A stretch of DNA of 64,000 nucleotides from a virus, in IMG/VR virus record IMGVR_UViG_3300013232_000047, positions 1 through 64,000 of that record; one strand, given 5' to 3'. The notes below the pieces were generated by a model that saw only the letters and a program-made list of their open reading frames with translations, ran no database searches and was not told the origin of the DNA. The translations under genes and the position numbers were made by a program. Shown piece by piece: positions 42,986 through 63,956 of this stretch (positions are counted from its first letter, which is position 1; each line of letters starts with the position of its first letter).

Positions 42986-43285
42986 TTGCGCCGCAATCCA
43001 CATACTCTGGTGGACGGCGCAGGGGCCGTATTTACTTTTGTGAAACCAAGTATTGCAGCCGCAGCTATCCGTATAGGCGAACGAATTTTTGCTGGTAAAA
43101 CCCAGTTTGAGGCTGTCGGCAAGCTTGTCAGAACGCCCAATGTCAGTGCCGAGGAGAAAATCGAGATGCTACTAGCGGGCGAAGCCGGGTATGTTACCGA
43201 CGACGGCCAGTTCGTAAACACCGATGATGCTTACGAGATTTCGCGGCAAGCGGGTGTTGTTTCCAATGCGGGTGTAGCTCAATAG
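42986..43285 (+). CDS. hypothetical protein (start unclear; in-frame ATA at 42977 follows TAGTTAAG)
   Basis: protein-like ORF (GYVTDDGQFV..DAYEI); end overlaps tRNA-Gly. Confidence 0.5.
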   Translation: MRRNPHTLVDGAGAVFTFVKPSIAAAAIRIGERIFAGKTQFEAVGKLVRTPNVSAEEKIEMLLAGEAGYVTDDGQFVNTDDAYEISRQAGVVSNAGVAQ

Positions 43286-43341
43286 TAGAGCGCGTGCTTG
43301 CCAAGCACAGGACGACGGTGCGATACCGTTCACTCGCTCCA
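43268..43341 (+). tRNA. tRNA-Gly(GCC)
   Basis: cloverleaf, loop TT-GCC-AA, CCA end. Confidence 0.9.
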
Positions 43342-43460
43342 ATTTTAGATCGTACGTTAAACCGGGAGTACTGCGATTAGCTATCGCAGGGTGGATGCGA
43401 AGGCCACACAGCTCAGGATCGGGGGTTGCAACCTCTGATCACTCTGGCCGGTCACTTTAT

Positions 43461-43536
43461 GGGGATATGGCGCGACAAGTAAGGCAGTTGCTTTGCAAGC
43501 AATTTCATGTGGGGGCGGTACCCACTATCTCCACCA
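43461..43536 (+). tRNA. tRNA-Ala(TGC)
   Basis: GGGGATA/TATCTCC acceptor with G3-U70, loop TT-TGC-AA. Confidence 0.85.
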
Positions 43537-44062
43537 CTGTTTTAGTAAGTGTAAACTTTCCTGTTTTGGTTAAAAAATGAAGTTCTAAATGACAGGTTGG
43601 GCACAGCACCTGTAGGTTTTTGGGTTTGTTATTTTTTCTATTTTTGTCTAGGTGGTGTACTTCTAGCACTTCTAAGTAACGGTTATATCCACATTTAGCA
43701 CATTTTGCACCATGCACGCGCAGTCCCACTTGTCTGTAAGCAGAGGCTCCTCCTTTAAAGTGCCGGAGAAGTTCTGGGTAATTTTCGGTACATTGTGCTT
43801 CGTCTCTGCATTTTCTGGAGCAAAAGTGTAATCCTGATTTGCTTAGACGTAGCCGTTTATTCGTTCGGTTAAAGTGTTTGCCACAAAGGCTGCATTCGAT
43901 TTGAACTTGTTTTTGGCTGTTTATTCCACTGCACTCTCTTGAACAGAATTTTTGAGCTAGAAAATGTTTTGGCACCCAAAAAGGTTTATCACAAATTTTA
44001 CAGCATTTTTGGTGCAGGTTTCTGGCTTTTCCATCGTAATCTTTAGACGTTTTAGCTTGCAT
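43505..44062 (-). CDS. HNH homing endonuclease with Zn-finger repeats
   Basis: C..C...FCSREC repeats; EVHHLDKNRKNNKPKNLQVLCPTCH. Confidence 0.9.
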   Translation of the reverse strand: MQAKTSKDYDGKARNLHQKCCKICDKPFWVPKHFLAQKFCSRECSGINSQKQVQIECSLCGKHFNRTNKRLRLSKSGLHFCSRKCRDEAQCTENYPELLRHFKGGASAYRQVGLRVHGAKCAKCGYNRYLEVLEVHHLDKNRKNNKPKNLQVLCPTCHLELHFLTKTGKFTLTKTVVEIVGTAPT

Positions 44063-44135
44063 CGTGTAGATATAACGTAGCACGCAAAGCCAGTCTTTTC
44101 CACCAATTTATGAGGTGGTAAACGTTAAAATAGTC

Positions 44136-44167
44136 GGTCGCAGGTGGAAATCCTGTTATCTCCACCA
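44136..44167 (+). pseudogene. tRNA 3'-half remnant (Ala-type)
   Basis: T-arm GCAGG-TGGAAAT-CCTGT followed by TATCTCCACCA identical to tRNA-Ala 3' end. Confidence 0.65.
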
Positions 44168-44184
44168 TTTCGTGTAGTTAAGGC

Positions 44185-45252
44185 ATGGCAGCGATTATTC
44201 GATCCTACGGAAGGTCAGGCGTGAATCACATTCGTCCTGCGCCGGGAAGTTACTACCTTCGAGGTCCAGAGATTCGTGAGCCCTACATCCCACCGTATCC
44301 GCCACTTCCTGCACCTGTCGTGCCACCATCTCCGCCTTCAACGTTGCCCGTAGTCATTACAGGTGAAGTACGTTTGGAAGGTATTCCTTATGATTCTGCA
44401 GTGGTTGCCTTCAGTGGTTCCGGATCTGTGGTTACGGATTCTTTTGGAACTTATGTTGGAACGGTGAGCTATGGCTACACAGGCACATCTTCGCTTTCAG
44501 GCTTTGATTTGCCAGTGTATACGGTAACACCTTCTTATCGCAGCTATGCAGGTCTGTCTACGGATGTGGCAGGTCAGGACTTTGACGTTGACATCAACTT
44601 TCTCAATATTTCAGGAACCGTGACGGAGAATGGCACTGGATTTAGTGTTCCGATTACCAACGGTGCCGGGACGTGGGCAACGAGTTCAAATGGATCTTAC
44701 GGATACTACGTGCCGTATGGTTGGAGCGGATCAACTGTTCCTCTTTCTGGTAGCGGAACATTTTCTCCTGATTCGTATGTTTATGGTCCTGTTGGCATTG
44801 ATCATTCCAATCAGAATTTTGCATTCACAGCGTTTGCGCCTGTGCCGCCTACACCTTCTATTGTTGACTGGACATTCTACGGTCCCTACAGCCCGGCACC
44901 TGTGTCTAATGGGGACACCATGAATGAGGCTTTCATGACTGTGAACGCCGGTGCGTCATGGTTAACTGCAGGTCCTACTACCCATTCAGTTAAAAACGTA
45001 GGAGCGTCGCCGCTTACGATTACGGACGTTCAACTTGCGGGCACCGGCTGGACAATGGATCTGTGGGACTATACCAGCATGGTTCCGTTTGTTCCTCCTT
45101 CCGCGTTAAATGACATTCCTGCTGGAGCACCGTTCCTGTTTAATATCGTTTTGACAGCTTCTGGGACGGGCGGTTATTCGTCGGCAGTAGTCACGGTAAC
45201 GCATACAGGTTCTAACTCTCCTTATACTGTAAATCTTGAGCGCACAGCATGA
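44185..45252 (+). CDS. putative virion decoration/tail protein with beta-sandwich repeats
   Basis: Ser/Thr/Gly-rich repeats (G.Y...V..GYSGT..P); paralogous to 55820..56488. Confidence 0.7.
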   Translation: MAAIIRSYGRSGVNHIRPAPGSYYLRGPEIREPYIPPYPPLPAPVVPPSPPSTLPVVITGEVRLEGIPYDSAVVAFSGSGSVVTDSFGTYVGTVSYGYTGTSSLSGFDLPVYTVTPSYRSYAGLSTDVAGQDFDVDINFLNISGTVTENGTGFSVPITNGAGTWATSSNGSYGYYVPYGWSGSTVPLSGSGTFSPDSYVYGPVGIDHSNQNFAFTAFAPVPPTPSIVDWTFYGPYSPAPVSNGDTMNEAFMTVNAGASWLTAGPTTHSVKNVGASPLTITDVQLAGTGWTMDLWDYTSMVPFVPPSALNDIPAGAPFLFNIVLTASGTGGYSSAVVTVTHTGSNSPYTVNLERTA

Positions 45253-45803
45253 GAGCGCTGATAGTCTTAAACATGTGGTCGTTTAAGGAGTTGGACGAAG
45301 TAAAGGCTCATGACGCGATGTTCGGTGATAAGCTTCGTATTGTAACGCCGCTGAACATCGACTTTGGTAACGTATGGCAGGTGCCCGATTCTATGAAGCT
45401 TCGAGTGGAGTGGACCAAGCGTTTTCTGCGTCGGTTTTTGCAGGAGTCGCATGACGTGCTCGTAAAAATTGATCCAGACACCGTTATCAAGAAACTGCCG
45501 GACATGCCTGCCGATTGTGACGTGGCAGGTGATTTCAGAAAGTCATCTGTAGGCTGGGTGTGGCTGGGTGCTTGCCAGTACTATACGCGTTCTGCTGTGG
45601 AAAAGATTTTATCCGATCCGCTTTACATTAACGGTTGTTACTATCAGGACGCAGCGCTGGCTAGCGTTGTATGCAGAACTGGTTTGAGGGCATTCAACAT
45701 GCCAGAGATCGACGGCTGGAGCCAGCCGGGTTCTACATCTGCTGTAACACATCGAGCCAAAAGTTCTATTCCAAAACAACCTGCTGGATTTGTTGAATTT
45801 TGA
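45249..45803 (+). CDS. glycosyltransferase-like protein
   Basis: VKIDPDT DxD motif, GACQ; paralog of 53359..54105. Confidence 0.65.
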   Translation: MRALIVLNMWSFKELDEVKAHDAMFGDKLRIVTPLNIDFGNVWQVPDSMKLRVEWTKRFLRRFLQESHDVLVKIDPDTVIKKLPDMPADCDVAGDFRKSSVGWVWLGACQYYTRSAVEKILSDPLYINGCYYQDAALASVVCRTGLRAFNMPEIDGWSQPGSTSAVTHRAKSSIPKQPAGFVEF

Positions 45804-45948
45804 GTGTCGCACTATACGCCCGGCGGATGGCAGCTCCGGAGTCGCTCTACTAAAAGGGCTGGCGTTAGAACGGATAAGCACGTGGTTATCGCCATGTCAC
45901 CTGTGTTAGGTCAAAGCTAGTCTACGCATCTGCGACACTCAAAACTTT

Positions 45949-46025
45949 AGCCCTGTGGTGGAATTAGTAGACACATCCGACTTTGAATCGGACAATTGCA
46001 GGTGCGAGTCCTGCCGGGGCTGCCA
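45949..46025 (+). tRNA. tRNA-Gln(TTG)
   Basis: cloverleaf, loop CT-TTG-AA. Confidence 0.88.
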
Positions 46026-46091
46026 TTTGCGGTGTTTGGGTGCAACAACCATTTGAGCCGAGCCGCATTAAAAGTTTCGGCGCGATTTCAT

Positions 46092-46164
46092 ACGGAGGGC
46101 ATCAGCTGTGCAGACTGGTCTCCAAAACCGGTCGTGTCGAGAGCGTCACTCGAACTCCGTGCCA
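46092..46164 (+). tRNA. tRNA-Trp(CCA), atypical
   Basis: loop CT-CCA-AA, acceptor ACGGAG/CTCCGT, GCCA end; weak D arm. Confidence 0.7.
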
Positions 46165-46279: not shown

Positions 46280-46370
46280 GGTAGCGTGAGCCGAGCAGCG
46301 ATGGCAACAGACTGTAAATCTGTCACCCTCTGGGAAAACACCACTGGTGCGAGTCCAGTCGCTACCACCA
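46280..46370 (+). tRNA. tRNA-Tyr(GTA)
   Basis: loop CT-GTA-AA, long variable arm. Confidence 0.88.
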
Positions 46371-46373
46371 TTT

Positions 46374-46850
46374 TCAAGCTAACTGCTGCAGATGTTGTTG
46401 ATGATGTTGGTGATGACGGACGTTAAAGATCGAAAAATAACGTTTTAGTAGCGTGACTAGATCCTCTAGCGTAATAGGTTTAACGATCACCGCTAGAGCG
46501 CCATAACTGTCAATTAGCCTGTATACATCATCGTCAGGAAATCCAGTAATGATGAGTACAGGCACGTTGATGTCTAAGCGGCGCATCTCCTTAATGACTT
46601 CAAATCCAGTCATACCTACCATGCGGATATCCAACAGTACACCTGAAAACTGGTCTTCGGCTAGAGCTCTTAGAGCGCTGGCACCGTCGTTGGCTACTCT
46701 TGACGTACAGCCTAGCCGAGCTAATCCAAACGCCAGTACGCTACAAACAGACGCCTCATCGTCTACGATTAGAAAGTGCGAAGGTTTAGCCAGCTTTTCA
46801 GCCAATTTTAAAACTGTCATTGGCTCGTTTAACACAGCATAACTACTCAA
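46374..46850 (-). CDS. stand-alone response regulator receiver protein
   Basis: LIVDDE, LLDIRM..MTG, IITG, KP. Confidence 0.9.
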   Translation of the reverse strand: MSSYAVLNEPMTVLKLAEKLAKPSHFLIVDDEASVCSVLAFGLARLGCTSRVANDGASALRALAEDQFSGVLLDIRMVGMTGFEVIKEMRRLDINVPVLIITGFPDDDVYRLIDSYGALAVIVKPITLEDLVTLLKRYFSIFNVRHHQHHQQHLQQLA

Positions 46851-46861
46851 CTCATTTTAAC

Positions 46862-46939
46862 GGGACGTTAGCTCAGTCCAGTCAGAGCGCTCGCCTGTCT
46901 AGCGAAAGGCCACGGGAGCGAAGCCCGTACGTCCCGCCA
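46862..46939 (+). tRNA. tRNA-Asp(GTC)
   Basis: cloverleaf, loop CT-GTC-TA. Confidence 0.88.
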
Positions 46940-46955: not shown

Positions 46956-47138
46956 ATGGCATTGACTGTACTCAAAGGTAAGAAGTTCAGTGTTTCTGTC
47001 AAATCGAAGGATAAGCGGCCAGATTACGTCAAAGTAGAACTGGTTGCAGGTGACAGAAGCCGAAAAGTATCACATCATCTTACACCGGCAGAGTGTAAGG
47101 TTTTTGCCTTCGCACTGCAGAAAGCCTCTAAAGCATGA
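46956..47138 (+). CDS. hypothetical protein
   Basis: 60-aa ORF with GTAGATAG motif 11 nt upstream. Confidence 0.6.
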   Translation: MALTVLKGKKFSVSVKSKDKRPDYVKVELVAGDRSRKVSHHLTPAECKVFAFALQKASKA

Positions 47139-47584
47139 TGATGAACGCACTTGAATTAGCACAGAAACTTACAGAAGCACGCGAAATTGTAGACGAAGCT
47201 ATCGTAAAAAATTGCCCAGTGCCGGTATTTTATGCCGATAAGGATGGAAAATTGTGCCGGGTTAACAACCTTTTGGGAAAATTACTGGCTGCAGATCCTG
47301 ATGATATTTTGGCTGATCGTTGGTTGAAGTTTGTAAAAGCAGGCAAGAAAGACTGGGAAGCTACCCTAAGAGCTAAACAAGATTCGACCAAAGTCTATTT
47401 GAAGCTTAAAGCAAGTGATGGAAGAGAGTTTGCTGTTTTTGTGAGTTTGATTCGATTAGTGAATGGTGGTTATATCGGATTTGTTTTACCAATTTGCGAG
47501 CATCCTACGGGGTGCCCGATGCATGGTTTCCTGCTTCACAATGTTGAGGATGATGGAACCAATGCAGCCCAAGTGCGTGGCTGA
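47135..47584 (+). CDS. PAS-domain protein
   Basis: PVPVFYADKDGKLCRVN...L....DDI...W..FV...LKASDG. Confidence 0.7.
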   Translation: MMMNALELAQKLTEAREIVDEAIVKNCPVPVFYADKDGKLCRVNNLLGKLLAADPDDILADRWLKFVKAGKKDWEATLRAKQDSTKVYLKLKASDGREFAVFVSLIRLVNGGYIGFVLPICEHPTGCPMHGFLLHNVEDDGTNAAQVRG

Positions 47585-47652: not shown

Positions 47653-47730
47653 CGAGCTGTAGCGTAGCCTAGTTAGCGCGTCTGTTTCGGGAACAGAAGG
47701 TCGTGAGTGCGAATCTCACCAGCTCGACCA
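47653..47730 (+). tRNA. tRNA-Pro(CGG)
   Basis: cloverleaf, loop TT-CGG-GA. Confidence 0.88.
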
Positions 47731-48277: not shown

Positions 48278-48355
48278 CGGGGTGTAGCGAAGTTAGCCTA
48301 ACGCGCCTGATTTGGGGTCAGGAGATCATCGGTGCGAATCCGATCACCCCGACCA
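48278..48355 (+). tRNA. tRNA-Pro(TGG)
   Basis: cloverleaf, loop TT-TGG-GG. Confidence 0.88.
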
Positions 48356-48361
48356 TTTTAT

Positions 48362-48438
48362 TGCTAGGTAGCTCAAATTAGTCGAGCGCGATATTGTTAA
48401 TATCGAAGATGTTGGTGCGAATCCGACCCTAGCAGCCA
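48362..48438 (+). tRNA. tRNA-Asn(GTT)
   Basis: cloverleaf, loop TT-GTT-AA. Confidence 0.88.
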
Positions 48439-48862: not shown

Positions 48863-48938
48863 GCTCCCGTGGCCGAGTACACGAGGCATTCGCCTTCTGA
48901 GCGAATAAACGCAGGTGGGATTCCTGCCGGGAGTACCA
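48863..48938 (+). tRNA. tRNA-Arg(TCT)
   Basis: cloverleaf, loop CT-TCT-GA. Confidence 0.88.
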
Positions 48939-48948: not shown

Positions 48949-49038
48949 GGAGGATTGGCTGAGTACTTAAAGCATCGGTCTTGAAAACCGAAGTCTGCCT
49001 TAAAAGCAGCGCAGGTGGAAATCCTGCATCCTCCGCCA
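48949..49038 (+). tRNA. tRNA-Ser(TGA)
   Basis: loop CT-TGA-AA, long V arm, G73. Confidence 0.9.
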
Positions 49039-49189: not shown

Positions 49190-49277
49190 GGAAGATTGGC
49201 CGAGTCCAGTAAGGCACCGGCTTGGAAAGCCGGAGTCGTCGCAAGGCGCGTGAGAGCGAAGCTCACATCTTCCGCCA
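49190..49277 (+). tRNA. tRNA-Ser(GGA)
   Basis: loop TT-GGA-AA, long V arm. Confidence 0.88.
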
Positions 49278-49445: not shown

Positions 49446-49533
49446 GGAAGATTGGCCGAGTACTAAGGCTCCCGCCTCGAAAGCGGAGGACTAGGGTAAC
49501 CTAGCGCAGGTGGGATTCCTGCATCTTCCGCCA
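49446..49533 (+). tRNA. tRNA-Ser(CGA)
   Basis: loop CT-CGA-AA, long V arm. Confidence 0.88.
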
Positions 49534-50387: not shown

Positions 50388-50463
50388 GGTCAGTTAGCTC
50401 ATTTGGTAGAGCAGCGTCTCGATAAGGCGCAGGCGGCTGGATCGTAGCCAGCACTGACCACCA
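50388..50463 (+). tRNA. tRNA-Ile(GAT)
   Basis: cloverleaf, loop TC-GAT-AA. Confidence 0.88.
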
Positions 50464-50469: not shown

Positions 50470-50545
50470 GTCGGAGTAGCTCAGATGGAAGAGCAGAAGA
50501 CTGAAAATCTTCGTGTCACCAGCTCGAAACTGGTCTCCGGCACCA
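50470..50545 (+). tRNA. tRNA-Phe(GAA)
   Basis: cloverleaf, loop CT-GAA-AA. Confidence 0.9.
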
Positions 50546-50616: not shown

Positions 50617-50695
50617 GTCCGTGAGCGCAAAGTCGTCGAGCGACCTGCCCTTCAAGCAGGAAATCTAAGGGGTGCGAGTCCCCTCACGGATACCA
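50617..50695 (+). tRNA. tRNA-Glu(TTC), atypical
   Basis: loop CC-TTC-AA, acceptor GTCCGTG/CACGGAT. Confidence 0.8.
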
Positions 50696-50702: not shown

Positions 50703-50777
50703 GGCCCGTTCGGCTATCAGCTAGGCCATCGGATTCTCAATCCGGGAAAGCGAGGGCGGCACTCGCACGGGCTACCA
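50703..50777 (+). tRNA. tRNA-Glu(CTC)
   Basis: loop TT-CTC-AA. Confidence 0.85.
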
Positions 50778-52189: not shown

Positions 52190-53320
52190 CTAGTCTGGCA
52201 AGTCGCCGTGCTTTTTAAGTTCTTCGAGTTTTGGAGCGGGATCTGCGAGTCCGCCGATGACGGTGTAGACTGTCAGGTTGTCCTTGTTGCCTCGGTAAAT
52301 GCCACGGTGTACCGTATTTCCCGGCTTAAGCATGCGATTCATTTGATCAAAAGCGTGATCGAGGTTCAGCTGCGGTATCGAGGAAAGAACACCTACTCCG
52401 CCGATAATGACTACCCCGGCTACGCTGCCTGTGCCCAAGTCCACGTCTCCGGAAAGCAGGTTTTTCTTCAGATTGTTGCGGACGGCATAGCTGATGTCCG
52501 TGGCGTCATTCCATTTTACGACAGGCGTTGCACCGAAGGTAATGAGACCTGAGTCAAATACCGTCTTTAGATCATTCACGTCAAAGCTGCTGTAGTGGCT
52601 GTGTTTTACAGACACCGTGTTGAACAGGTGAAGCAGGCTGCATACGCTCATGTTTGCAGTGTCCCAGAACGGGTCTACGGCAAGCGATGGATACATCTTT
52701 CCGATCTTCTCGTTGTCACAGATAATGAGGGGGGATATGACGCCTTTATCCCGGAGGAATAGCAGATCCTTTAAGGTGTTGTAGGCATTTACACTGACTT
52801 TCTTACCTTCTGAAATCTTGGGTAAGGCAACGATGACACCCACTTTTTCGGAAGGGCAGCGAAGGGCTTTCTGAAGTTCGACGGCGGTGTCTACAAGGTG
52901 TACTGCAGTGCCAGCGCCGGTTCCTCCGCCCGCTCCTACGCAGACGAAGATGCGCTCAAAGCCCTGACCAAATGAACGGCGCATAAAATCAAGGACATCT
53001 TCCTTGCGTTCATGCATAAGCGCCTTGGCTACTGACGGGTTCTTACCTGCGCCTCCAGTGCCAAAGCATAGCTTGCGATCAGCTGGCAATTGGATATGGG
53101 TTAGGTCTTGTTCTGCTGTGTTGATACAGCAGACGCGTTTGTATCCCATTTTGTAAAATGTGGCAGCTAGCCGGGAGCCACCTTGGCCGCTGCCAATGAA
53201 GGCGAATTTGAAACCAGCCTGAAAGTCGTCAATAATTTCTTGATTTGCGACTTCTTCGGGCATTGGGATTTCTGGCACATTTACGTCAAATTCTACTGCG
53301 TTATTGGCTTCATCACTCAT
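52190..53320 (-). CDS. tubulin/FtsZ-superfamily GTPase
   Basis: IGSGQGG, INT, GAGKNP, GAGGGTGAG signature, DN. Confidence 0.9.
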   Translation of the reverse strand: MSDEANNAVEFDVNVPEIPMPEEVANQEIIDDFQAGFKFAFIGSGQGGSRLAATFYKMGYKRVCCINTAEQDLTHIQLPADRKLCFGTGGAGKNPSVAKALMHERKEDVLDFMRRSFGQGFERIFVCVGAGGGTGAGTAVHLVDTAVELQKALRCPSEKVGVIVALPKISEGKKVSVNAYNTLKDLLFLRDKGVISPLIICDNEKIGKMYPSLAVDPFWDTANMSVCSLLHLFNTVSVKHSHYSSFDVNDLKTVFDSGLITFGATPVVKWNDATDISYAVRNNLKKNLLSGDVDLGTGSVAGVVIIGGVGVLSSIPQLNLDHAFDQMNRMLKPGNTVHRGIYRGNKDNLTVYTVIGGLADPAPKLEELKKHGDLPD

Positions 53321-53347: not shown

Positions 53348-53423
53348 GCTCCCGTAGCTCAGTTTATAGAGCGTCGCTTTCCTAGGGCGAATGTCGCTGG
53401 CGAGATCCCAGCCGGGAGTGCCA
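53348..53423 (+). tRNA. tRNA-Arg(CCT)
   Basis: loop TT-CCT-AG. Confidence 0.87.
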
Positions 53424-54125: not shown

Positions 54126-54201
54126 GCTCGCGTAGCTCAGTTTATAGAGCGCAGCCCTGCGAAGGCTGAGGTCGTTGGTGAGACTCCAACCGCGAGCACC
54201 A
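54126..54201 (+). tRNA. tRNA-Arg(GCG)
   Basis: loop CT-GCG-AA. Confidence 0.87.
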
Positions 54202-54244: not shown

Positions 54245-54862
54245 ATGATACGAAAATTATTTACGCCGTTGTTTACACCAATGTCTGATGCAGGCATGCT
54301 AGATCCGGGTAGGGCTGTAAACATTGCTCACTACGCTCTTCAGTGCTCAGAACTGCCGGGTGCAATGGTTGAGTTTGGATGCTATAACGGTTGTTCATCT
54401 GCAGTCTTAGCGGTAGTGGCTGATAAGCCGCTTTACGTCTATGACAGCTTTGAGGGGTTGCCAGAGCGTGCGCCACAAGATGTAGGAGCACACGAATCAT
54501 TCAAAGCTGGATCGCTGGCTGTCGGCGAACATGAGATTCATGCTCTTTTTGCCAAATACGATCTGCGCAAGCCGATTGTTTGGAAGCTCTGGTTTAATCA
54601 GGTTGGACCTGAGCATCTGCCAGAGAGCATCTGTTTTGCTTATCTGGACGGTGATTTTTACACCAGCATTCGCGATAGTTTGAGCCTCGTTTATCCACGG
54701 ATGGTGCCGGGTGCAGCCTGCATCATTGACGACTACGGTTGGGAGGCTTTGAGTGGTGTTAAGATCGCAGTTGATGAATACATGGCTGATAAGCCTGAAA
54801 AGGTGAAACAGCTCGTGACTGGGAATCCTAGTGGTCTTCACGCCGTTTTCATAAAGATTTAG
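54245..54862 (+). CDS. TylF/MycF-family O-methyltransferase
   Basis: GAMVEFGCYNG, DSFEGLP, LDGDFY.S, IIDDY. Confidence 0.9.
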   Translation: MIRKLFTPLFTPMSDAGMLDPGRAVNIAHYALQCSELPGAMVEFGCYNGCSSAVLAVVADKPLYVYDSFEGLPERAPQDVGAHESFKAGSLAVGEHEIHALFAKYDLRKPIVWKLWFNQVGPEHLPESICFAYLDGDFYTSIRDSLSLVYPRMVPGAACIIDDYGWEALSGVKIAVDEYMADKPEKVKQLVTGNPSGLHAVFIKI

Positions 54863-54869: not shown

Positions 54870-54943
54870 ATCCCGCTTGCATAATAGAAGTGCCTGAATC
54901 CTACAAATTCAAGGTGGCGGTGCGACTCCGTCGCGGGATACCA
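54870..54943 (+). tRNA. tRNA-Val(TAC)
   Basis: loop CC-TAC-AA. Confidence 0.8.
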
Positions 54944-54947: not shown

Positions 54948-55023
54948 GCCAGTATGCCTCAGCAGCTACAGGATTGGTTTTGTAAACCAATATTCGGCGG
55001 TGCGAGTCCGCCTACTGGCTCCA
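54948..55023 (+). tRNA. tRNA-Thr(TGT)
   Basis: loop TT-TGT-AA. Confidence 0.85.
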
Positions 55024-55026
55024 GAT

Positions 55027-55103
55027 GTGGCCGTAGCTCAATTTAGCTAGAGCCGTGGATTGTGAATCCACCTATACGGATGCGAATTCCGTCGGCCACC
55101 CCA
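55027..55103 (+). tRNA. tRNA-His(GTG)
   Basis: loop TT-GTG-AA, C73. Confidence 0.88.
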
Positions 55104-55107: not shown

Positions 55108-55182
55108 AGCCCGTTGGTCGAGTAGTAAGGCATCCGTCTGCAAAACGGAATTACGCTGGTGCGATTCCAGTACGGGCTTCCA
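55108..55182 (+). tRNA. tRNA-Cys(GCA)
   Basis: loop CT-GCA-AA, U73. Confidence 0.88.
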
Positions 55183-55557: not shown

Positions 55558-55632
55558 GCGGCATAGGTGCTGATAGACGCACGTGAGTTTTCCGAACTTG
55601 AGGAGTGGGCGCGATACCCACATGCCGCTCCA
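55558..55632 (+). tRNA. tRNA-Gly(TCC)
   Basis: loop TT-TCC-GA. Confidence 0.83.
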
Positions 55633-56494: not shown

Positions 56495-56570
56495 GCCTCC
56501 CTAGCTCAACTACTAGAGCATCTGGCTCTTAACCAGAATGTTGTGAGTGGAAATCTCACGGGTGGCACCA
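56495..56570 (+). tRNA. tRNA-Lys(CTT)
   Basis: loop CT-CTT-AA. Confidence 0.87.
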
Positions 56571-56573: not shown

Positions 56574-56645
56574 GCCGATACCGCCAGCGCGGATGCGAGT
56601 TCCGTAAACTTGCAGTGGTTGGAGCGACACCAACTATCGGCTCCA
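56574..56645 (+). tRNA. tRNA-Thr(CGT), atypical
   Basis: loop TC-CGT-AA, short D arm. Confidence 0.75.
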
Positions 56646-56646: not shown

Positions 56647-56721
56647 GGGGGTGTAGCTCAACAGTAGAGCAGCGGAGAGACAATCCGAAGGTCGTTGGGG
56701 CGGCACCAACCATTCCCACCA
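56647..56721 (+). tRNA. tRNA-Val(GAC)
   Basis: loop GA-GAC-AA. Confidence 0.8.
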
Positions 56722-57228: not shown

Positions 57229-57304
57229 GCTCCCGTAGCTCAATTACTAGAGCAATTGTCTTCGGAACAATTGGTTGCAGGTGGGATTCCTGCCGGGAGT
57301 ACCA
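57229..57304 (+). tRNA. tRNA-Arg(TCG)
   Basis: loop CT-TCG-GA. Confidence 0.88.
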
Positions 57305-58305: not shown

Positions 58306-58389
58306 GGGGATGTGGTTTACCCAGAATAGCAGATGGGACTCATTCAGATTGAGACAGCCTTGGAGGTGCGATTCCTCTTATCCCCACCA
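58306..58389 (+). tRNA. tRNA-Leu(CAG), atypical D region
   Basis: acceptor GGGGATG/TATCCCC-ACCA, CTCA-TTCAGAT-TGAG, T arm. Confidence 0.65.
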
Positions 58390-58397: not shown

Positions 58398-58474
58398 GCC
58401 CACGTAGCCCAACAGCAAGAGGCGCTAGTTTTAGGAACTAGCTGTTGTCGGTGCGAATCCGACCGTGGGTACCA
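58398..58474 (+). tRNA. tRNA-Leu(TAG), short variable arm
   Basis: loop TT-TAG-GA. Confidence 0.85.
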
Positions 58475-58480: not shown

Positions 58481-58555
58481 GCCCCCGTAGCCCAACGCAG
58501 AGGCAACGGGTTTAAGCTCCGTTAAGTGCAGGTTCAAGACCTGTCGGGGGCACCA
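58481..58555 (+). tRNA. tRNA-Leu(TAA), short variable arm
   Basis: loop TT-TAA-GC. Confidence 0.85.
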
Positions 58556-58558: not shown

Positions 58559-58636
58559 CGCGCCGTAGCCCAACTAGCAGGAGGCAGCAGTTTCAAAAAC
58601 TGAACAGTGCAGGTGCGAATCCTGTCGGCGCGACCA
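58559..58636 (+). tRNA. tRNA-Leu(CAA), short variable arm
   Basis: loop TT-CAA-AA. Confidence 0.85.
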
Positions 58637-58782: not shown

Positions 58783-58859
58783 CGCGGGGTGGAGCAGCCC
58801 GGAAGCTCGCGACGCTCATAACGTCGAGGTCACAGGTTCAAATCCTGTCCCCGCAACCA
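58783..58859 (+). tRNA. initiator tRNA-fMet(CAT)
   Basis: CGCGGGGTGGAGCAGCCCGG, C1:A72 mismatch, loop CT-CAT-AA. Confidence 0.9.
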
Positions 58860-58978: not shown

Positions 58979-59063
58979 GGTCTCGTGCGCCTAACGGTAG
59001 GGCGGGGTTTACTTCCCCACGAAGTTTTACCCAGTGCTGGTTCGAATCCAGCTGAGACCACCA
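58979..59063 (+). ncRNA. tRNA-like RNA with extended anticodon arm
   Basis: normal acceptor, D and T arms; anticodon arm GGGT-TT-ACTTC-CCCAC-GAAGT-TTT-ACCC. Confidence 0.75.
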
Positions 59064-59644: not shown

Positions 59645-60088
59645 GGGGCCGTAATGGTTTCGATTTACGAAAACTTACGGTTATGACATGTCGAGGATGG
59701 CTATCGGCCTCGTTAAGTAGTAGCCACAAGTCAAATGCTGACAACAGTGATGACAATATCCTGAACATCGACAGTTTGCTGGCTCAAGCAGAGTCCATCG
59801 TGAATAACGCGGACGAAGTGTTGGCCCAGTTTCCTGTCGAACAGGAACTTGCTGCAGCCTGAAGTGCTGTAGGCGGTGCAGTGGAGACTCCTGCTATCCA
59901 TTGTATCGCTAAACTAGCAGGGAAGTGTTCTACCGAGCACAGTCGGTGGGCTTGTCGATAAAGCTTAATCGAATCCTGCAGTTACTTTTTAGCTATTTAA
60001 AGCCTGCAGGTATAAAAATAGAGAAGCATGTGTAAGTAACCGGCGAGAGGTCGTAAAGAAAGGGGTTCGACTCCCCTCGGCTCCACCA
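59645..60088 (+). ncRNA. ssrA: tmRNA
   Basis: GGGGCCG..GGTTTCGA 5' end, G3-U70, tag ORF 59737-59862 ending ELAAA*, 3' GGTTCGACTCC..CGGCTCCACCA. Confidence 0.93.
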
Positions 60089-60095
60089 TTTTTAA

Positions 60096-60222
60096 GGCTT
60101 GTGGGTCTAGAAGAGTAGGATTGCTATTAAGGGTGCTGCAACATCATGAGGCGTCCTCGGATAAGACGGCTGTAGGGTTACAGCTACAGATAAGTGAGGT
60201 TCGAATCCTCAACAAGCCATCA
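60096..60222 (+). ncRNA. expanded tRNA-like RNA
   Basis: acceptor GGCTTGT/ACAAGCC, T arm TGAGG-TTCGAAT-CCTCA, multi-hairpin interior. Confidence 0.6.
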
Positions 60223-60435
60223 ATTTCCCGCCCGTTGCATCATAGTACAGAGCAGTACGACGGCCTAAAAACCGTATGAATAGGAGCGTAGCGAACTCTA
60301 GGGTGCCGGTATCTCGAAGTCACGAGGTCGCGGCGGGAAAGCTCTTTGAAATTTTGTGGTTGCGTTGTTGAACATAGGCTTATTAACTCACTATGTTCAG
60401 CACTATACACGCAGCCACAAAGCTCTTTGAAAATT

Positions 60436-60578
60436 TAGCGGGTCGAAATCGTTGGTTATCACCAAACTGTTTGTCGAAGGTTCGAATCCTTCTCCCGGCT
60501 CCATATGCCGGGGTAGCTCAGTTGGCAGAGCAATAGTCTTCCCGAAAGGGAATTTCCGACGGTAAACCTTATCCGCTA
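60436..60578 (+). ncRNA. Y RNA, YrlA-type with permuted tRNA-like domain
   Basis: TAGCGGGTCGAA/CCTTATCCGCTA Ro helix; T arm, closed acceptor stem CCCGGC/GCCGGG, then D arm. Confidence 0.88.
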
Positions 60579-60663
60579 TACTTTATGCAGTCAGCCTGTT
60601 CTTTGGCTACATGTTTCTTGCTTCAGTGTAGCCTAACTTTTCAGACAGGCTGACTGCGCTATT

Positions 60664-60726
60664 TTGTCGGGTCGAACGTAAAGGGTTATCTCTAAAAATC
60701 GCCCTTTGCCACCACTTACCTGACAA
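60664..60726 (+). ncRNA. minimal Y RNA
   Basis: TTGTCGGGTCGAA-C-GTAAAGGG-TTATC...CCCTTTGC..CACTTACCTGACAA. Confidence 0.78.
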
Positions 60727-60732
60727 GAGCTT

Positions 60733-60890
60733 AAAAGTGTCGAGAGACCGCGTGTCGCTGGTTCAATTCCAGCCGTGTTCGCAGTAGCTCAGCGGTAGAG
60801 CAGCGCCGGAAGCGTGTGTCGCAGGTTCAAATCCTGCCTGTAAATGAACATGTAGCTCAGTGGTAGAGCAGCGAGTTCTCTCGACATTTT
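60733..60890 (+). ncRNA. double tRNA-elbow RNA
   Basis: order T arm, D arm, hairpin, T arm, D arm inside a 14-bp closing stem. Confidence 0.8.
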
Positions 60891-60941
60891 TTGTCGTTTT
60901 TTCTAGTTGACGGAAAACACGTGATTCGATAGCTTAGTCCT

Positions 60942-61304
60942 ATGAAAAGAATCTACCTAAGCAAAGCAGGTGAAGTAAGGATGCCGACTATCGACGAGCG
61001 TAGTCACTACGGAATGGCTAAAACTATTCTCGGTCCTTCTTGGGTAGGTGACACAGAAGATGCCTATACTGCTATGTGGCTGCTTGGCTGGGTGCGTGTA
61101 GCAGAATATGATGACACAGTTTACGCTGAAAAGTACATAAATGGAGAACCTGTAAAGTGGGTTGATCTTCCAAGAGCACAACGTGAATGGCTCGAAGACA
61201 GAAAGTTAGAAGGTAAGCAGGTCATGTGGAACGACACAGTGTTCGAGTCAACGCGTGAAGGAAAACAATTTGCAGGTGATATTGTTAAGGCTCTTTTGCA
61301 GTAA
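60942..61304 (+). CDS. hypothetical protein
   Basis: 120-aa ORF after TTGACG promoter; ends FAGDIVKALLQ. Confidence 0.7.
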   Translation: MKRIYLSKAGEVRMPTIDERSHYGMAKTILGPSWVGDTEDAYTAMWLLGWVRVAEYDDTVYAEKYINGEPVKWVDLPRAQREWLEDRKLEGKQVMWNDTVFESTREGKQFAGDIVKALLQ

Positions 61305-61320
61305 GTTACGTTTTTTCTAT

Positions 61321-61410
61321 GCCAATGTGAGCTAACCTAAAGGCTACCGCGTCCCGGAGAAAGTCTGGACAAGCGCGGCAGTGAGGGCGAAACCCCCTCC
61401 ATTGGCTCCA
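61321..61410 (+). ncRNA. tRNA-like RNA with extended anticodon arm
   Basis: acceptor GCCAATG/CATTGGC-TCCA; CCGCG/CGCGG stem enclosing 22-nt hairpin. Confidence 0.7.
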
Positions 61411-61515
61411 ATTTCCGACGGGTCACCAACTTACCTGTCGGGTCAGTAAACCGCAAACGGCCCTCGCAGGGGCTTACGCGAGTTGGAGCGACTGCACAGA
61501 AGGAGGCGCAAAATT

Positions 61516-63222
61516 ATGGGCGCTATCAAGGTTAGTTCGTTAAATACTTCCCGCCAGCAGGCGCGGAACAAGAACCTCTCAGTTCAACAGCCTATTCCAG
61601 ACAAGGGGCAAGTGCTTAACAGCACGGGTGGCTACGTCTGGCAAGCCAATGACTGGGATCTGCTCACTCGGTTTCTTATTCTCGGTGTCGAGGGCGGCAC
61701 CTACTACGTGAATGAGCCGGAACTGTTGAAGAGTAACACAGAAGCCGTAAAGCGTTGCATTCATACGCACGGTGTTCGCACTGTAAAGGAAATCGTAGAC
61801 GTGTCTGTAAATGGACGTGCCTATCGTAACGATCCGGCTATCTACGCATTGGCACTGGCTACCTATCTTGGAAATCAAAAGACCACAGAGGCTGCATACG
61901 CAGCTGTTCCTAACGTGTGTCGCACCGGCACTCACCTGTATCACTTCGCCATGTACTGCGACGCCCTCCGTGGCTGGGGTCGTGGTTTGAAGAAGGCAGT
62001 GGGCCGTTGGTTTACGTGTCAGGACGCTAATCGTCTGGCCTACCAGATGGTAAAGTATCAGCAGCGGGATGGTTGGTCTGCGGCAGACTTGCTGCGAAAG
62101 TCACATCCTGTTGCCGAGGACGCTGCTCAAGATGCGGTGTTTCGTTGGGTCGTTGCTGGAATGGATTGCCTTGGTGCCCGTCAGATCAAGCGCAAGTGCG
62201 GTTCTACGGAACTGATACATGACTACGCAGACGTGACGGCACATCTGCCAAAGTTTATCGAGGTGTTTGAGAAGGCCAAGACTGCCAGTGAGAAGGAACT
62301 GGTCAAGCTCATCCTTGACCATGGTCTTCCTCGTGAGGGCGTGCCAACGGAGAAGTTGAACAGCGTCGCTGTTTGGGACGCACTGCTCCAGAAGATGCCG
62401 CTCACGGCCATGATTCGTAACCTCGGAAAGATGACCAGTATCGGGCTGTTGAAGCCGATGTCCGAAGGTTCTAAGCTGGTAAGTGAGCGCCTTCGAGACG
62501 CTGATTACCTGAAGAAGTCTCGTGTTCATCCGATGGCGGTGCTTGTTGCGTCCAAGGTGTATGCAAACAACAAGGGCTTGAAGGGCAAGCTGACGTGGAA
62601 TCATGTTCCGCAACTCCTGACTGCGCTTGATGAGGCGTTCTACGCGACCTTTGGCAACGTTGTGCCTTCGGGCAAGGATATGCTAATCGCGCTGGATGTA
62701 TCTGGTTCCATGTCCAGTGCAATTGCGGGTAGCGTGATATCTTCTGCGGAAGCTGTTGCAGCTATGTCTTTGGTTTGGGCATCTACGGAGCCGTCGGTTC
62801 ACGTGTTTGGATTTGCTAACACGTTTCGTGATCTGGGTATCCGCAAGGGTATGTCACTCGCTGAGGCAACGCGCCGGGCGCAAGACTCGAACTTCGGTTC
62901 GACAGATGTTTCGCTGGCTTACCAGTTTGCGCTTGATAACCGCATCAAGGTTGGTGGATTCATCGTAATGACGGATAACGAAGTCAATAGTGGTCGGCAC
63001 CCTGCGCTGGCTTTGCGTGAATACCGTGAGCGCTTTGTCAGCGATGCGCGTAGCGTCGTGGTTGCTACAGCTGCAACCAGATTCACGATTAACGATCCTA
63101 CAGATAAGTGGGGTTTGGATGTATCCGGGTTCGACACCTCGGTGCCGAACGTAGTCACCGACTTTATCCGTGGTGAGCACGTAAAGGCTGAAATGGATGA
63201 AGAAGTTTCGGTTGAGGATTAA
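61516..63222 (+). CDS. Ro60 (TROVE + vWA) RNA-binding protein
   Basis: NSTGGY, RFLILG.EGGTYY, GWGR, KYQQRDGW, MPLTAMIRNLGKMT, DVSGSM MIDAS, TDNE, GFD; AGGAGG SD before ATG 61516. Confidence 0.95.
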   Translation: MGAIKVSSLNTSRQQARNKNLSVQQPIPDKGQVLNSTGGYVWQANDWDLLTRFLILGVEGGTYYVNEPELLKSNTEAVKRCIHTHGVRTVKEIVDVSVNGRAYRNDPAIYALALATYLGNQKTTEAAYAAVPNVCRTGTHLYHFAMYCDALRGWGRGLKKAVGRWFTCQDANRLAYQMVKYQQRDGWSAADLLRKSHPVAEDAAQDAVFRWVVAGMDCLGARQIKRKCGSTELIHDYADVTAHLPKFIEVFEKAKTASEKELVKLILDHGLPREGVPTEKLNSVAVWDALLQKMPLTAMIRNLGKMTSIGLLKPMSEGSKLVSERLRDADYLKKSRVHPMAVLVASKVYANNKGLKGKLTWNHVPQLLTALDEAFYATFGNVVPSGKDMLIALDVSGSMSSAIAGSVISSAEAVAAMSLVWASTEPSVHVFGFANTFRDLGIRKGMSLAEATRRAQDSNFGSTDVSLAYQFALDNRIKVGGFIVMTDNEVNSGRHPALALREYRERFVSDARSVVVATAATRFTINDPTDKWGLDVSGFDTSVPNVVTDFIRGEHVKAEMDEEVSVED

Positions 63223-63251
63223 GTTCCGACAGAGGAACAGGTAGTTTACAA

Positions 63252-63290
63252 AGAGCGCCCCGGCGAAAGCTCGGGCGCTCTGTTCTATTT
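63252..63290 (+). terminator. probable intrinsic terminator
   Basis: AGAGCGCCC..GCGAAAGC..GGGCGCTCT followed by T-rich tail. Confidence 0.6.
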
Positions 63291-63296
63291 AAGCGT

Positions 63297-63611
63297 ATGA
63301 ACGCATCAATAAGTTTTCAGGATTGTGAAAGAAAAAGTCCGCCCGTGAATTATCCGATCATGTTTCTGGACGCTAAACCGTCTGGGATTGATCTTAAATT
63401 CAGCAAAGAAACCGATCCACGCAGCCGTCGTCCTAACGTCTACACTGTTTCTTTGACGCCAGCTGTTAAGATGGGCGAGTGGAACAATGTCGAAGGCGAC
63501 GAAGGCGACATTGAACAAGTGCAGTCTACAAAGCTTCCGCAAGGTACCCGAGTTGAAGGCATTTGGTGCGAAGCCGGGGAGCGACGCATCGTGGTGCTAG
63601 AATACGTTTGA
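63297..63611 (+). CDS. hypothetical protein
   Basis: 104-aa ORF. Confidence 0.65.
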   Translation: MNASISFQDCERKSPPVNYPIMFLDAKPSGIDLKFSKETDPRSRRPNVYTVSLTPAVKMGEWNNVEGDEGDIEQVQSTKLPQGTRVEGIWCEAGERRIVVLEYV

Positions 63612-63616
63612 TTTTT

Positions 63617-63704
63617 GGAGGATTGCTAGAGTACTAATAGGCCGACCTGCTAAGTCGAGGCCGTCGTAAAAGGCGCACAGGTGGAAATCCTGTATCCTCC
63701 GCCA
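63617..63704 (+). tRNA. tRNA-Ser(GCT)
   Basis: loop CT-GCT-AA, long V arm. Confidence 0.88.
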
Positions 63705-63711
63705 TTTTAGT

Positions 63712-63789
63712 GGACCCGTAGCTCAATGTTTAGAGCACCAGACTCATAATCTGCGAGGTTGTGGGTGCGAATCTCCACCGGGTCCACCA
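63712..63789 (+). tRNA. tRNA-CAT (Ile2 or elongator Met)
   Basis: loop CT-CAT-AA. Confidence 0.8.
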
Positions 63790-63791
63790 AC

Positions 63792-63876
63792 GGGCACGTG
63801 GCTAAGAGGGAATTAGCAGACCCCTGAGCTTGAGAAGTTCAGAACCTTGGGAGTGCGAGTCTCCCCGTGCCCACCA
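63792..63876 (+). tRNA. tRNA-Leu(GAG), atypical D region
   Basis: loop TT-GAG-AA, acceptor GGGCACG/CGTGCCC. Confidence 0.72.
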
Positions 63877-63882
63877 ATTTTC

Positions 63883-63956
63883 GCCTTGCAAGCATTAAAG
63901 TGATGCAGCGCGCTTTTAACGCGCAGAACACGGAGCGTTACCGTGGCGGGGCACCA
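63883..63956 (+). tRNA. tRNA-Lys(TTT)
   Basis: loop CT-TTT-AA. Confidence 0.83.

Follow-up and report, generated by a model that had tools for sequence, protein, structure and literature searches.

Covarying D-loop and T-loop letters in the tRNA array of an uncultured large phage

Must the elbow of a tRNA be built from G18, G19, U55 and C56? These four nucleotides, with U55 as pseudouridine, are treated as conserved marks of tRNA in the relevant passages of two reviews (PMC7912444, PMC7609411), and the question is raised by a stretch of viral DNA in which most tRNA genes depart from them. The stretch, here called the window, is 64,000 nucleotides long and comprises bases 1-64000 of the 120,022-bp IMG/VR virus record IMGVR_UViG_3300013232_000047, which we label G000 (CheckV completeness 53%, GC content 48.8%). 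It holds 38 tRNA or tRNA-like genes that end in CCA, 37 of them in one array, and position 55 is G in 32 of the 38 and U in six (the suppressor Sup-CTA, Ile, Phe, Leu-TAA, initiator Met and the tRNA-like RNA at 58979). A first-pass annotation, made from the letters alone, had claimed that most of these tRNAs lack the canonical GG of the D-loop and TTC of the T-loop, an observation that holds and survives formal tests. We propose, at a rough probability of 70%, that these are working phage tRNAs whose elbow has been moved to the general T-loop design known from other RNAs. The rewired genes most likely specify functioning tRNAs with an alternative elbow that preserves the shape and, judging from their sequences, they would be used in translation.

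How were the genes found? ARAGORN and Rfam both score the T-loop and the D-loop, so we wrote a cloverleaf scanner that is blind to loop sequence and asks only for four stems plus a CCA encoded in the DNA. On the + strand the scanner returned 31 tRNAs; on the - strand it returned none that carries CCA. Seven more CCA-ended genes (at 43461, 46280, 56574, 58306, 58979, 63712 and 63792) came from Rfam or from a covariance model of our own. ARAGORN reports 25 tRNAs in the window and misses 13 of the 38, and Rfam adds further tRNAs, together with the transfer-messenger RNA (tmRNA) and sub-threshold YrlA matches. At the curated RF00005 cut-off of 29 bits there are 26 matches in the window, laxer filters adding more, and the whole record gives 30 matches, of which 29 exceed it. 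The tRNA-Ala(TGC) gene was missed by ARAGORN and also by our scanner, for which its D-stem is too weak, and tRNA-Glu(TTC) was detected by the scanner only, with no entry for it from ARAGORN, Rfam or the covariance model. The array runs from the start of Gly-GCC at 43268 to the end of Lys-TTT, CCA included, at 63956, and the first and last tRNA ends agree with the span given by the first-pass annotation. The anticodons in the window cover 19 of the 20 amino acids; only Trp is absent from this half-genome, and a Trp tRNA is present in the related phages G001 and G003.

[quoted passage not shown]

T-loop positions 54-60 were counted from the 3' end and are thus unambiguous. Among the 31 scanner tRNAs the 54-56 triplet is TGC in 12, TGG in 6, AGC in 3, TTC in 3, GGC in 2, and ATC, CTC, CGA, TGA and CGC in one each. 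G55 stands in 26 of the 31, where the canonical elbow would have U55 with G18, and the canonical G19-C56 pair gives way to C19-G56 in six window tRNAs and to U19-A56 in two; the 19-56 pair is nevertheless Watson-Crick in 30 of the 31. The first-pass annotation had read three combinations of loops. A T-loop NGC goes with a D-loop AG in every tRNA for which this was claimed (Gly-GCC, Gln, Asp, both Pro, Asn, His and Cys), and TGG goes with AC in all six (Arg-TCT, Ser-TGA, Ser-CGA, Ser-GCT, Lys-CTT and Arg-TCG). The third combination, NGA with AT in Arg-GCG and Arg-CCT, stands as to the T-loops, TGAGACT and CGAGATC, but not as to A18. In their D-loop, AGTTTATA, AT is the penultimate dinucleotide only, leaving no nucleotide 20, and the usual register makes 18-19 TT. 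The G001 ortholog of Arg-GCG, with loops AGTTGTATA / TTAAAGT, favours N18-U19-A20-U-A21, so that U19-A56 is retained and A18 is doubtful.

A strict rule was then used for counting: a Watson-Crick 19-56 pair together with either A18 and G55 or G18 and U55, in any D-loop register in which 18-19 is flanked on both sides by one base or more. Both parts are obeyed by 27 of the 31 window tRNAs, against 11.7 expected when T-loops are permuted among the tRNAs, and none of 5000 such shuffles reaches 27. The A18-G55 swap and the 19-56 covariation that the first-pass annotation had described are both borne out by these counts. In the clade of related phages, after removal of identical sequences (242 tRNAs reduced to 195 unique; G007 is nearly the same as G001, and G017 repeats part of G021), 171 of the 195 obey both rules against 78.5 expected. 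With C56 held fixed, G55 occurs with AG only in 107 tRNAs and with GG in 3, and U55 with AG only in none and with GG in 40 (Fisher 2.8e-33). D-loops with [A/G]C accompany G56 in 17 of 20 tRNAs and C56 in 30 of 160 (6e-9). The rare G55-U56 class carries AA (2/2) and the U55-U56 class GA (2/2), so that all four Watson-Crick 19-56 pairs occur in the clade.

The covariation localizes to the two expected nucleotides. In D-loops of seven nucleotides (n=50) the mutual information links N55 only with loop position 4, which is nucleotide 18 (0.55 bit), and N56 only with loop position 5, which is nucleotide 19 (0.80 bit); neither peak is equalled in 1000 shuffles, and N57 has no link. Two adjacent registers are seen in 8-nt D-loops.

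The 54-58 pair varies as well. Among the 195 clade tRNAs it is U-A in 121, A-A in 26, A-U in 26, C-A in 10, G-G in 6 and C-C in 3, and G54 is found solely with G58 (6/6). In the G001 array (L079-L080), A54 occurs in 24 of 38 tRNAs, often with U58 (ATCGTNN), which is a reversed U54-A58, the others having A54-A58. The consensus YGNRA fits 21 of the 31 window tRNAs, 19 with U54 and 2 with C54, and the other G55 loops have A54 (3) or G54 (2). For the T-loops of FMN and cobalamin riboswitches, the relevant part of one study (bioRxiv 10.1101/2022.12.26.521914) gives UGNRA at 88.7% and CGNRA at 10.9%, the base that intercalates between loop positions 4 and 5 being nearly always an adenosine; the UUCRA of tRNA is treated there as a variant with U at loop position 2, and one rRNA T-loop is GGAAG. 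The tRNA elbow, according to the corresponding passages of PMC4810234, has residue 18 inserted between T-loop positions 4 and 5 and a flat, exposed 19-56 pair on which 23S rRNA, RNase P and T-boxes stack, proteins making hydrogen bonds with base groups.

What kind of elbow do these letters suggest? We propose that in working phage tRNAs the elbow has probably shifted from the tRNA-specific design, in which U54-U55-C56-R57-A58 receives an intercalating G18 and C56 pairs with G19, to the general T-loop design, in which Y/G54-G55-N56-R57-A/G58 would receive A18 as the intercalating base. Nucleotide 56 would be free to vary, given a Watson-Crick partner at 19. The loops UGCGA, UGGGA, UGAGA, CGCGA and GGCGG of the phage tRNAs, with A at the G18 site, match that general design. 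By analogy with the riboswitch loops, the A18-G55 elbow would be equivalent to the canonical one in three dimensions. The base groups offered to proteins would change, U55 and G18 being gone and, in some tRNAs, U54 or A58 too. Since the L-shape and the flat 19-56 pair would be kept, partners that stack, such as the ribosome and RNase P, should still be able to dock. With G55 instead of U55, no pseudouridine-55 is possible; working tRNAs lacking this modification, called the most universally conserved of tRNA in a passage of PMC7912444, are implied.

Elbow codes of related phages

Is the G55 elbow peculiar to one phage? A search with the capsid protein found 52 related loci at 31-97% identity. 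Taking G000 as the reference for capsid identity, with G55 in 26 of 31 tRNAs, G55 stands in 22 of 25 in G010 (capsid 82% identical), 21 of 25 in G003 (80%), 9 of 17 in G018 (89%), 26 of 27 in G021 (68%) and all 32 in G019 (62%). It is found in 0 of 38 tRNAs of G001 and 0 of 37 of G007 (capsid 89% in both). G002, G004 and G005 are 89-98% complete, yet have one or two tRNAs each. The G55 elbow is therefore spread through related phages, and the sister phage G001 differs in having U55.

The comparison of G000 with G001 is instructive, as the two arrays are syntenic, with the same anticodon order. The elbow code of G001 is G18-G19 with A54-U55-C56, ATC being the triplet in 24 of 38. Among 27 pairs with the same anticodon, G55 in G000 faces U55 in G001 in 21 and C55 in 2, and U55 is common to both phages in 4. 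The 19-56 pair of Lys-CTT and Ser-GCT is C-G in G000 versus G-C in G001, that of initiator Met G-C versus C-G, and that of Arg-CCT U-A versus C-G. For Gly-GCC, the two phages agree at every one of the 32 positions compared in the acceptor, D and T stems, and the same is true of the 32 compared in Asp-GTC; the G001 loops are AACGGTA / ATCGACA and AGTCTGGCTA / ATCGAAG, respectively, and both ortholog pairs differ at both 18 and 55. Between the Pro tRNAs of G001 and G010 the sole D-loop difference is G18 to A18 and the sole T-loop difference U55 to G55. Arg-TCT has AC/GG in G000, AG/GC in G010 and GC/UG in G001, its 54-56 triplet being TGC in G010 and TTG in G001. Where orthologs have D-loops of equal length, A falls precisely at the G18 site. 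Paralogs differ too: the window's Ser-GGA and Ser-CGA have acceptor and D stems in common and belong to different 19-56 classes. The counterpart in G001 of the RNA at 58306 has loops ACCGGGAATGGC / TTCAAGT.

Some RNAs keep the canonical elbow, as the first-pass annotation had said of the initiator tRNA, the suppressor tRNA, the tmRNA and the YrlA-like RNA, the loops of the last being GG and TTCRAWT. These exceptions are no rule of the clade, for the CAT tRNA of G019, with an initiator-type D-arm, has A18/G55 (AATTGTA / TGCAACC).

To look outside the clade, one G55 T-arm 17-mer from G021 was run on genome and viral contigs. The genome contigs gave at least 123 matches; among the matches listed, 13 parse as cloverleaves, of which 11 have AG only, none GG and 2 neither; the parsed ones include one metagenome-assembled genome (MAG) each from Opitutus and Saccharibacteria, and two DPANN-type archaeal MAGs. 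At least 123 matches were also obtained in the viral contigs, and of the 41 that parse among the matches listed, 39 have AG only and none GG. The unparsed matches look like chance matches in GC-rich DNA. An Arg/Ser T-arm 17-mer gave 19 loci in viral contigs; Rfam places no tRNA at those positions, and the loci were discarded as chance matches. Among relatives of the Ro60 protein encoded within the array (41-45% identity), only L003 has a tRNA array, which is mostly canonical, with TTC in 12 of 18 and a few 19-56 covariants. In this unrelated phage G18/U55 is kept, yet 19-56 covaries, Gln-TTG having GT with TTAGA and Thr-CGT having GC with TTGAA; its Pro-CGG has GC with TCGAA, position 55 being C.

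Probable working tRNAs and possible causes of the change

The first-pass annotation saw in these genes functional tRNAs with a preserved shape and an altered elbow sequence, and this is supported by the coverage of 19 amino acids, by the CCA ends encoded in the window genes, by synteny, by the matched double changes and by the stems. In the clade alignment 96.6% of cloverleaf cells are paired, the covariation score is 0.894 against 0.197 for shuffled alignments, and 22 of 22 pairs have changed on both sides. Among the 195 clade tRNAs, G53-C61 is found in 190, U8 in 175, A14 in 175 and a purine at 57 in 194. U33, the expected base at that position of a tRNA, occurs in 165, and a purine at 37 in 189. 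By our own parse, C stands at position 33 in 29 of the 195, some of these perhaps being mis-registered anticodon loops. Identity marks are in place: G3:U70 in Ala, long arms in Ser and Tyr, C73 in His and A73 in Leu.

Several points weigh against our interpretation. An ordinary covariance-model alignment (A2) pairs 19 with 56 in 69% of rows only; such an alignment fixes no D-loop register, which accounts for the low pairing, and shuffles, fixed-length loops and orthologs were used in its place. At least one rule is broken by 24 of the 195 unique clade tRNAs, including Glu-TTC, Leu-TAA, Arg-CCT and Arg-GCG of the window, and Met-CAT at 63712, which lies outside the 31, has U18 opposite G55. The 18-55 rule is looser in the A56 class, in which nucleotide 18 is A, U, C or G according to register. 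Because the tRNAs of an array are related, the Fisher P-values overstate the number of independent events, and the contrasts between orthologs and between paralogs are the better evidence of repeated events. The anticodon stems of orthologs have diverged too, so the elbow may not have changed faster than the rest. No candidate T-loop reader was found in the scanned phage DNA.

Might the rules then be an artefact of flexible motif matching, the register having been picked to fit within loops of 7-10 nt? The D-loop register does vary, in a gapless alignment (A1) columns 18-19 of Thr and Arg-TCT hold GC or CA, the AT reading of the first-pass annotation needs an unusual register, and the 69% pairing just mentioned points the same way. 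We nonetheless reject this explanation and regard its chance as negligible, because the same flexible search falls far short on shuffled T-loops, because fixed-length loops, where no register is chosen, still give positions 4 and 5, and because equal-length orthologs put A exactly at the G18 site; once the D-loop register is handled in these ways, the covariation persists on formal alignment. It is very improbable, too, that the RNAs are non-functional or serve outside translation, as decaying copies, decoys or regulatory tRNA mimics. One might think so from the non-standard anticodon arms of the RNAs at 56574, 58306, 58979 and 63792, from the Ro60 gene and YrlA-like RNAs inside the array, and from the 13 genes that ARAGORN misses. 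Against this, the four stems are kept by compensatory change, the anticodon loops are standard for the most part, the identity marks fit and the anticodon order is conserved between phages, and decay gives no matched changes at 18-55 and 19-56. If the elbow has indeed moved to the general T-loop design in working tRNAs, what moved it? The first-pass annotation offered, as examples, an escape from host defences directed at tRNAs and from dependence on modification. Whole arrays switch together, which suggests an agent affecting all tRNAs together, and our leading guess is a trans-acting protein that reads the T-loop, be it a host nuclease, a defence effector or a modification enzyme. A tentative extension, which we would not call likely, is that the elbow is a battleground, a host T-loop reader selecting phage sets with other letters and the same shape, and sister phages using different codes (U54-G55/A18 as against A54-U55/G18 in G001). 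If that were true, the near-complete set would be a natural orthogonal tRNA pool, translating while canonical tRNAs are attacked. No tRNA nuclease, ligase or modification enzyme was found in Pfam and PHROGs searches of hand-picked larger open reading frames (ORFs) from the 120 kb and the relatives' arrays, or in two ESM Atlas look-ups.

The main rival to a T-loop-reading agent is pure drift, a possible though doubtful account, in which constraint is relaxed (the tRNAs being short-lived and in no need of full modification), A18/G55 is an equally fit second state, and the compensatory changes are neutral and inherited with the array, with no enzyme or defence involved. The alternative design is general, stable and used by many RNAs; variants coexist, with ten 54-56 triplets in G000 and about half G55, half U55 in G018; the swap is also seen in unrelated genomes among the matches listed, those of Saccharibacteria and DPANN-type archaea; and a phage-encoded T-loop enzyme was not found in the scanned ORFs. 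One would expect of drift, however, more mixed genomes and half-changed intermediates, and what is seen are nearly all-or-none genomes, such as G019 and G001, with GG in only 3 of 110 G55 tRNAs that have C56. The 21 of 27 same-anticodon differences between G000 and G001 would need many separate double changes in one direction, and the A54 of G001 occurs with different T-stems, so that gene conversion of whole arms is no explanation. A special case of the reading we prefer is self-marking, in which the phage, or an abortive response of the host, disables canonical tRNAs and the rewired elbow spares the phage set. Its appeal is that the set is near-complete in half a genome, that whole arrays are uniform, and that the elbow base groups are what proteins read, the ribosome and RNase P stacking on the flat face. 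We think it quite improbable: a nuclease candidate was not recognized among the scanned ORFs of the 120 kb or the relatives' arrays, relatives G002, G004 and G005 manage with their one or two tRNAs, and the phage's own initiator, suppressor, tmRNA and YrlA-like RNAs are canonical and would be struck too, which argues against a phage nuclease that kills everything canonical.

The array, its neighbours and known systems

The genes of the array and neighbouring features are collected in Table 1.

Table 1. Features of the window, with the D-loop and T-loop sequences of the tRNA and tRNA-like genes
Feature	Position	Strand	D-loop	T-loop	Remarks
Suppressor tRNA(CTA)	4837..4912	+	ATTTGGTA	TTCGATT	outside array; canonical
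Gene run	21185..27836				split transketolase-like proteins, radical SAM/SPASM protein, four or five methyltransferases
Family A DNA polymerase	31914..37658				1914 aa; intein splicing domain and LAGLIDADG domain
tRNA-Gly(GCC)	43268..43341	+	AATAGTA	TGCGATA	A18 G19 / G55 C56
tRNA-Ala(TGC)	43461..43536	+	GACAAGTA	GGCGGTA	AG / G55 C56, G54-G58; G3:U70
tRNA-Gln(TTG)	45949..46025	+	AATTAGTAG	TGCGAGT	
tRNA-Tyr(GTA)	46280..46370	+		TGCGAGT	AG within D-loop; long variable arm; anticodon arm re-read by eye
Response-regulator receiver domain	46374..46850				
tRNA-Asp(GTC)	46862..46939	+	AGTCCAGTCA	AGCGAAG	A54-A58
PAS domain	47135..47584				
tRNA-Pro(CGG)	47653..47730	+	AGCCTAGTTA	TGCGAAT	
tRNA-Pro(TGG)	48278..48355	+	AGTTAGCCTA	TGCGAAT	
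tRNA-Asn(GTT)	48362..48438	+	AAATTAGTC	TGCGAAT	
tRNA-Arg(TCT)	48863..48938	+	AGTACACG	TGGGATT	A18 C19 / G55 G56
tRNA-Ser(TGA)	48949..49038	+	AGTACTTA	TGGAAAT	AC / GG
tRNA-Ser(GGA)	49190..49277	+	AGTCCAGTA	AGCGAAG	AG / GC
tRNA-Ser(CGA)	49446..49533	+	AGTACTA	TGGGATT	AC / GG
tRNA-Ile(GAT)	50388..50463	+	ATTTGGTA	ATCGTAG	G18 G19 / U55 C56, A54-U58 swap
tRNA-Phe(GAA)	50470..50545	+	AGATGGAA	CTCGAAA	GG / U55 C56, C54-A58
tRNA-Glu(TTC)	50617..50695	+	AAGTCGTCG	TGCGAGT	exception: G19-C56 possible, nucleotide 18 not A (C18?)
tRNA-Glu(CTC)	50703..50777	+	ATCAGCTA	GGCGGCA	AG / G55 C56, G54-G58
Tubulin/FtsZ-like GTPase	52190..53320				
tRNA-Arg(CCT)	53348..53423	+	AGTTTATA	CGAGATC	U19-A56, base 18 uncertain
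tRNA-Arg(GCG)	54126..54201	+	AGTTTATA	TGAGACT	U19-A56, base 18 uncertain
TylF-like methyltransferase	54245..54862				
tRNA-Val(TAC)	54870..54943	+	AATAGAA	TGCGACT	
tRNA-Thr(TGT)	54948..55023	+	AGCAGCTA	TGCGAGT	
tRNA-His(GTG)	55027..55103	+	AATTTAGCTA	TGCGAAT	
tRNA-Cys(GCA)	55108..55182	+	AGTAGTA	TGCGATT	
tRNA-Gly(TCC)	55558..55632	+	TGATAGAC	CGCGATA	AG / G55 C56, C54-A58
tRNA-Lys(CTT)	56495..56570	+	AACTACTA	TGGAAAT	AC / GG
CCA-ended tRNA-like RNA	56574..56645	+		AGCGACA	small D-arm, unusual anticodon arm
tRNA-Val(GAC)	56647..56721	+	AACAGTA	GGCGGCA	AG / G55 C56, G54-G58
tRNA-Arg(TCG)	57229..57304	+	AATTACTA	TGGGATT	AC / GG
CCA-ended tRNA-like RNA	58306..58389	+	ACCCAGAATAGC	TGCGATT	12-nt D-loop
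tRNA-Leu(TAG)	58398..58474	+	AACAGCAAG	TGCGAAT	short variable region
tRNA-Leu(TAA)	58481..58555	+	AACGCAG	TTCAAGA	short variable region; exception: no 18-19 dinucleotide fits
tRNA-Leu(CAA)	58559..58636	+	AACTAGCAGG	TGCGAAT	short variable region
Initiator-type tRNA-Met(CAT)	58783..58859	+	AGCCCGGAA	TTCAAAT	C1/A72 mismatch; canonical
tRNA-like RNA	58979..59063	+	AACGGTA	TTCGAAT	canonical elbow; long anticodon arm, closing 5-nt loop
tmRNA	59645..60088	+		TTCGACT	Rfam; canonical
Tandem YrlA-like modules (T-arm then D-arm)	60190..60880	+			all GG and TTC-type loops, by reading of the sequence
Ro60/Rsr homolog	61483..63222	+			TROVE and vWA_Ro60; context, no part of elbow rewiring
tRNA-Ser(GCT)	63617..63704	+	AGTACTA	TGGAAAT	AC / GG
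tRNA-Met or Ile2 (CAT)	63712..63789	+	AATGTTTA	TGCGAAT	bulged T-stem; exception: U18? G19 with G55 C56
CCA-ended tRNA-like RNA	63792..63876	+	AGAGGGAAT	TGCGAGT	possibly Leu-GAG with extra bases ahead of the anticodon stem
tRNA-Lys(TTT)	63883..63956	+	TAAAGTG	AGCGTTA	AG / G55 C56, A54-U58

A few of the tRNAs are unusual away from the elbow. Bacterial tRNA-His genes usually encode G-1; the window's gene (55026-55103 with the preceding base) has C73 but T at -1, so no G-1. A long variable arm is the norm for bacterial Leu tRNAs, and the three Leu tRNAs here have variable regions of 5 nt, with A73. Short-arm Leu tRNAs are reported for Streptomyces coelicolor in a passage of PMC6614811. The four RNAs with non-standard anticodon arms, which show either a closed loop of 5 nt or additional bases ahead of the stem, possess counterparts in G001 and may be tRNA mimics or unusual Leu tRNAs.

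The tmRNA, the YrlA-like modules and the Ro60/Rsr gene form a cluster (59645-63222) inside the tRNA array, and a Ro60 gene also lies within the arrays of G001 and G003. The best three matches to RF02553 (YrlA / Y RNA) score 29.5-32.8 bits against a cut-off of 69 bits and fall at 60468-60874; as the scores are below the cut-off and the modules lie upstream of the Ro60 gene, we label them YrlA-like only. Genes for a receiver domain, a PAS domain, a tubulin-like GTPase and a methyltransferase are also interspersed among the tRNA genes. The suppressor tRNA gene lies 38 kb from the array. A suppressor is kept in tRNA-poor relatives, with CTA in G005 and TTA in G004, as the single tRNA of each, and G001, which has a large array, likewise has a CTA suppressor outside it. 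Stop-codon recoding was considered as the reason for the suppressor and set aside, no sign of it being found in the 120 kb: TAG is the stop codon of 25 of 119 ORFs, and treating it as a sense codon brings no greater gain than treating TGA or TAA in that way.

What phage is this? G000 codes for a T4-type major capsid protein, a head protease, a baseplate wedge protein, a UvsX-like recombinase, an NAD-dependent ligase, DnaB-like and DEAD-type helicases, a tubulin-like protein and the Ro60 homolog. The window also carries an intein-containing family A DNA polymerase, and a run of genes that may be a sugar or DNA modification module. No near-identical DNA record was found among isolated phages, and the best match of the capsid protein to them is below 30% identity; with no close isolate, we name no host and speak of an uncultured large phage. 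A look-up of sequencing runs returned no RNA run containing the stretch, and two DNA runs with small shares of it (0.11 and 0.06).

What would such an elbow mean? It would mean that there is more than one way to build a tRNA elbow. The window's near-complete natural tRNA set has dropped the G18, G19, U55 and C56 marks in a rule-bound fashion. A second elbow design is here worked out with its contact rules, its exceptions and natural ortholog pairs for comparison, with 19-56 and 54-58 variants side by side and a sister phage that uses a different code in the same array. Gene finders undercount tRNAs of this kind, as the ARAGORN result indicates, and the engineering of orthogonal tRNAs could draw on these genes as natural parts. 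Should a defence that reads the T-loop be behind the change, it would open a new front in the phage-host conflict over translation. An A18/G55 tRNA elbow was not described in the literature reached by a full-text search, which mostly did not cover subscription journals, so that older mutational or combinatorial work on the D-loop and T-loop may exist. Nor is it mentioned in the relevant sections of reviews of T-loop chemistry (PMC7912444) and non-canonical tRNAs (PMC7609411).

How does the array compare with known systems? Like the long mobile tRNA arrays (L-arrays, such as the Anabaena trn operon; PMC8421152), it has dozens of dense tRNA genes with HNH endonuclease genes alongside, here at 43505-44083 of the window and 64359-65003 of G000. 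The relevant passages of that paper make no mention of the D-loop, G18 or tertiary pairs. Unlike the L-arrays, the present array lies in a phage genome and also includes a tmRNA, a Ro60 gene and YrlA-like RNAs. A second comparison is with phage tRNA sets that differ from host tRNAs where host proteins read them: T5-type phage tRNAs escape anticodon nucleases by way of altered anticodon loops. In those cases the nuclease is known and the change is in the anticodon loop, whereas in the present phages the change is at the elbow and no nuclease candidate was recognized among the scanned ORFs.

The remaining comparisons concern the elbow itself. Eukaryotic initiator tRNA has an A54-A58 pair in its T-loop, according to a passage of PMC7912444, and A54-A58 is also found in Asp and Ser-GGA of the window and in many G001 tRNAs; in the phages, however, it occurs in elongator tRNAs, often with G55, and the reversed A54-U58 pair is found in 26 of 195 tRNAs too. 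The likeness to the general T-loop motif, as known from riboswitches, RNase P and rRNA, extends to UGNRA, CGNRA and GGNRG loops with A as the partner base. The phage motif differs in that it sits in a tRNA, where it would dock the D-loop in a geometry predicted by analogy, position 3 pairing with nucleotide 19. With the canonical elbow, built on G18-pseudouridine55, G19-C56, T54-A58 and a stacked R57, the phage tRNAs share the cloverleaf, the 7-nt T-loop closed by G53-C61, the purine at 57 and a Watson-Crick 19-56 pair. They depart from it in having G55 for U55 and A18 for G18, in forming 19-56 as G-C, C-G, U-A or A-U, and in accepting at 54-58 not only U-A but also A-A, A-U, C-A, G-G and C-C.

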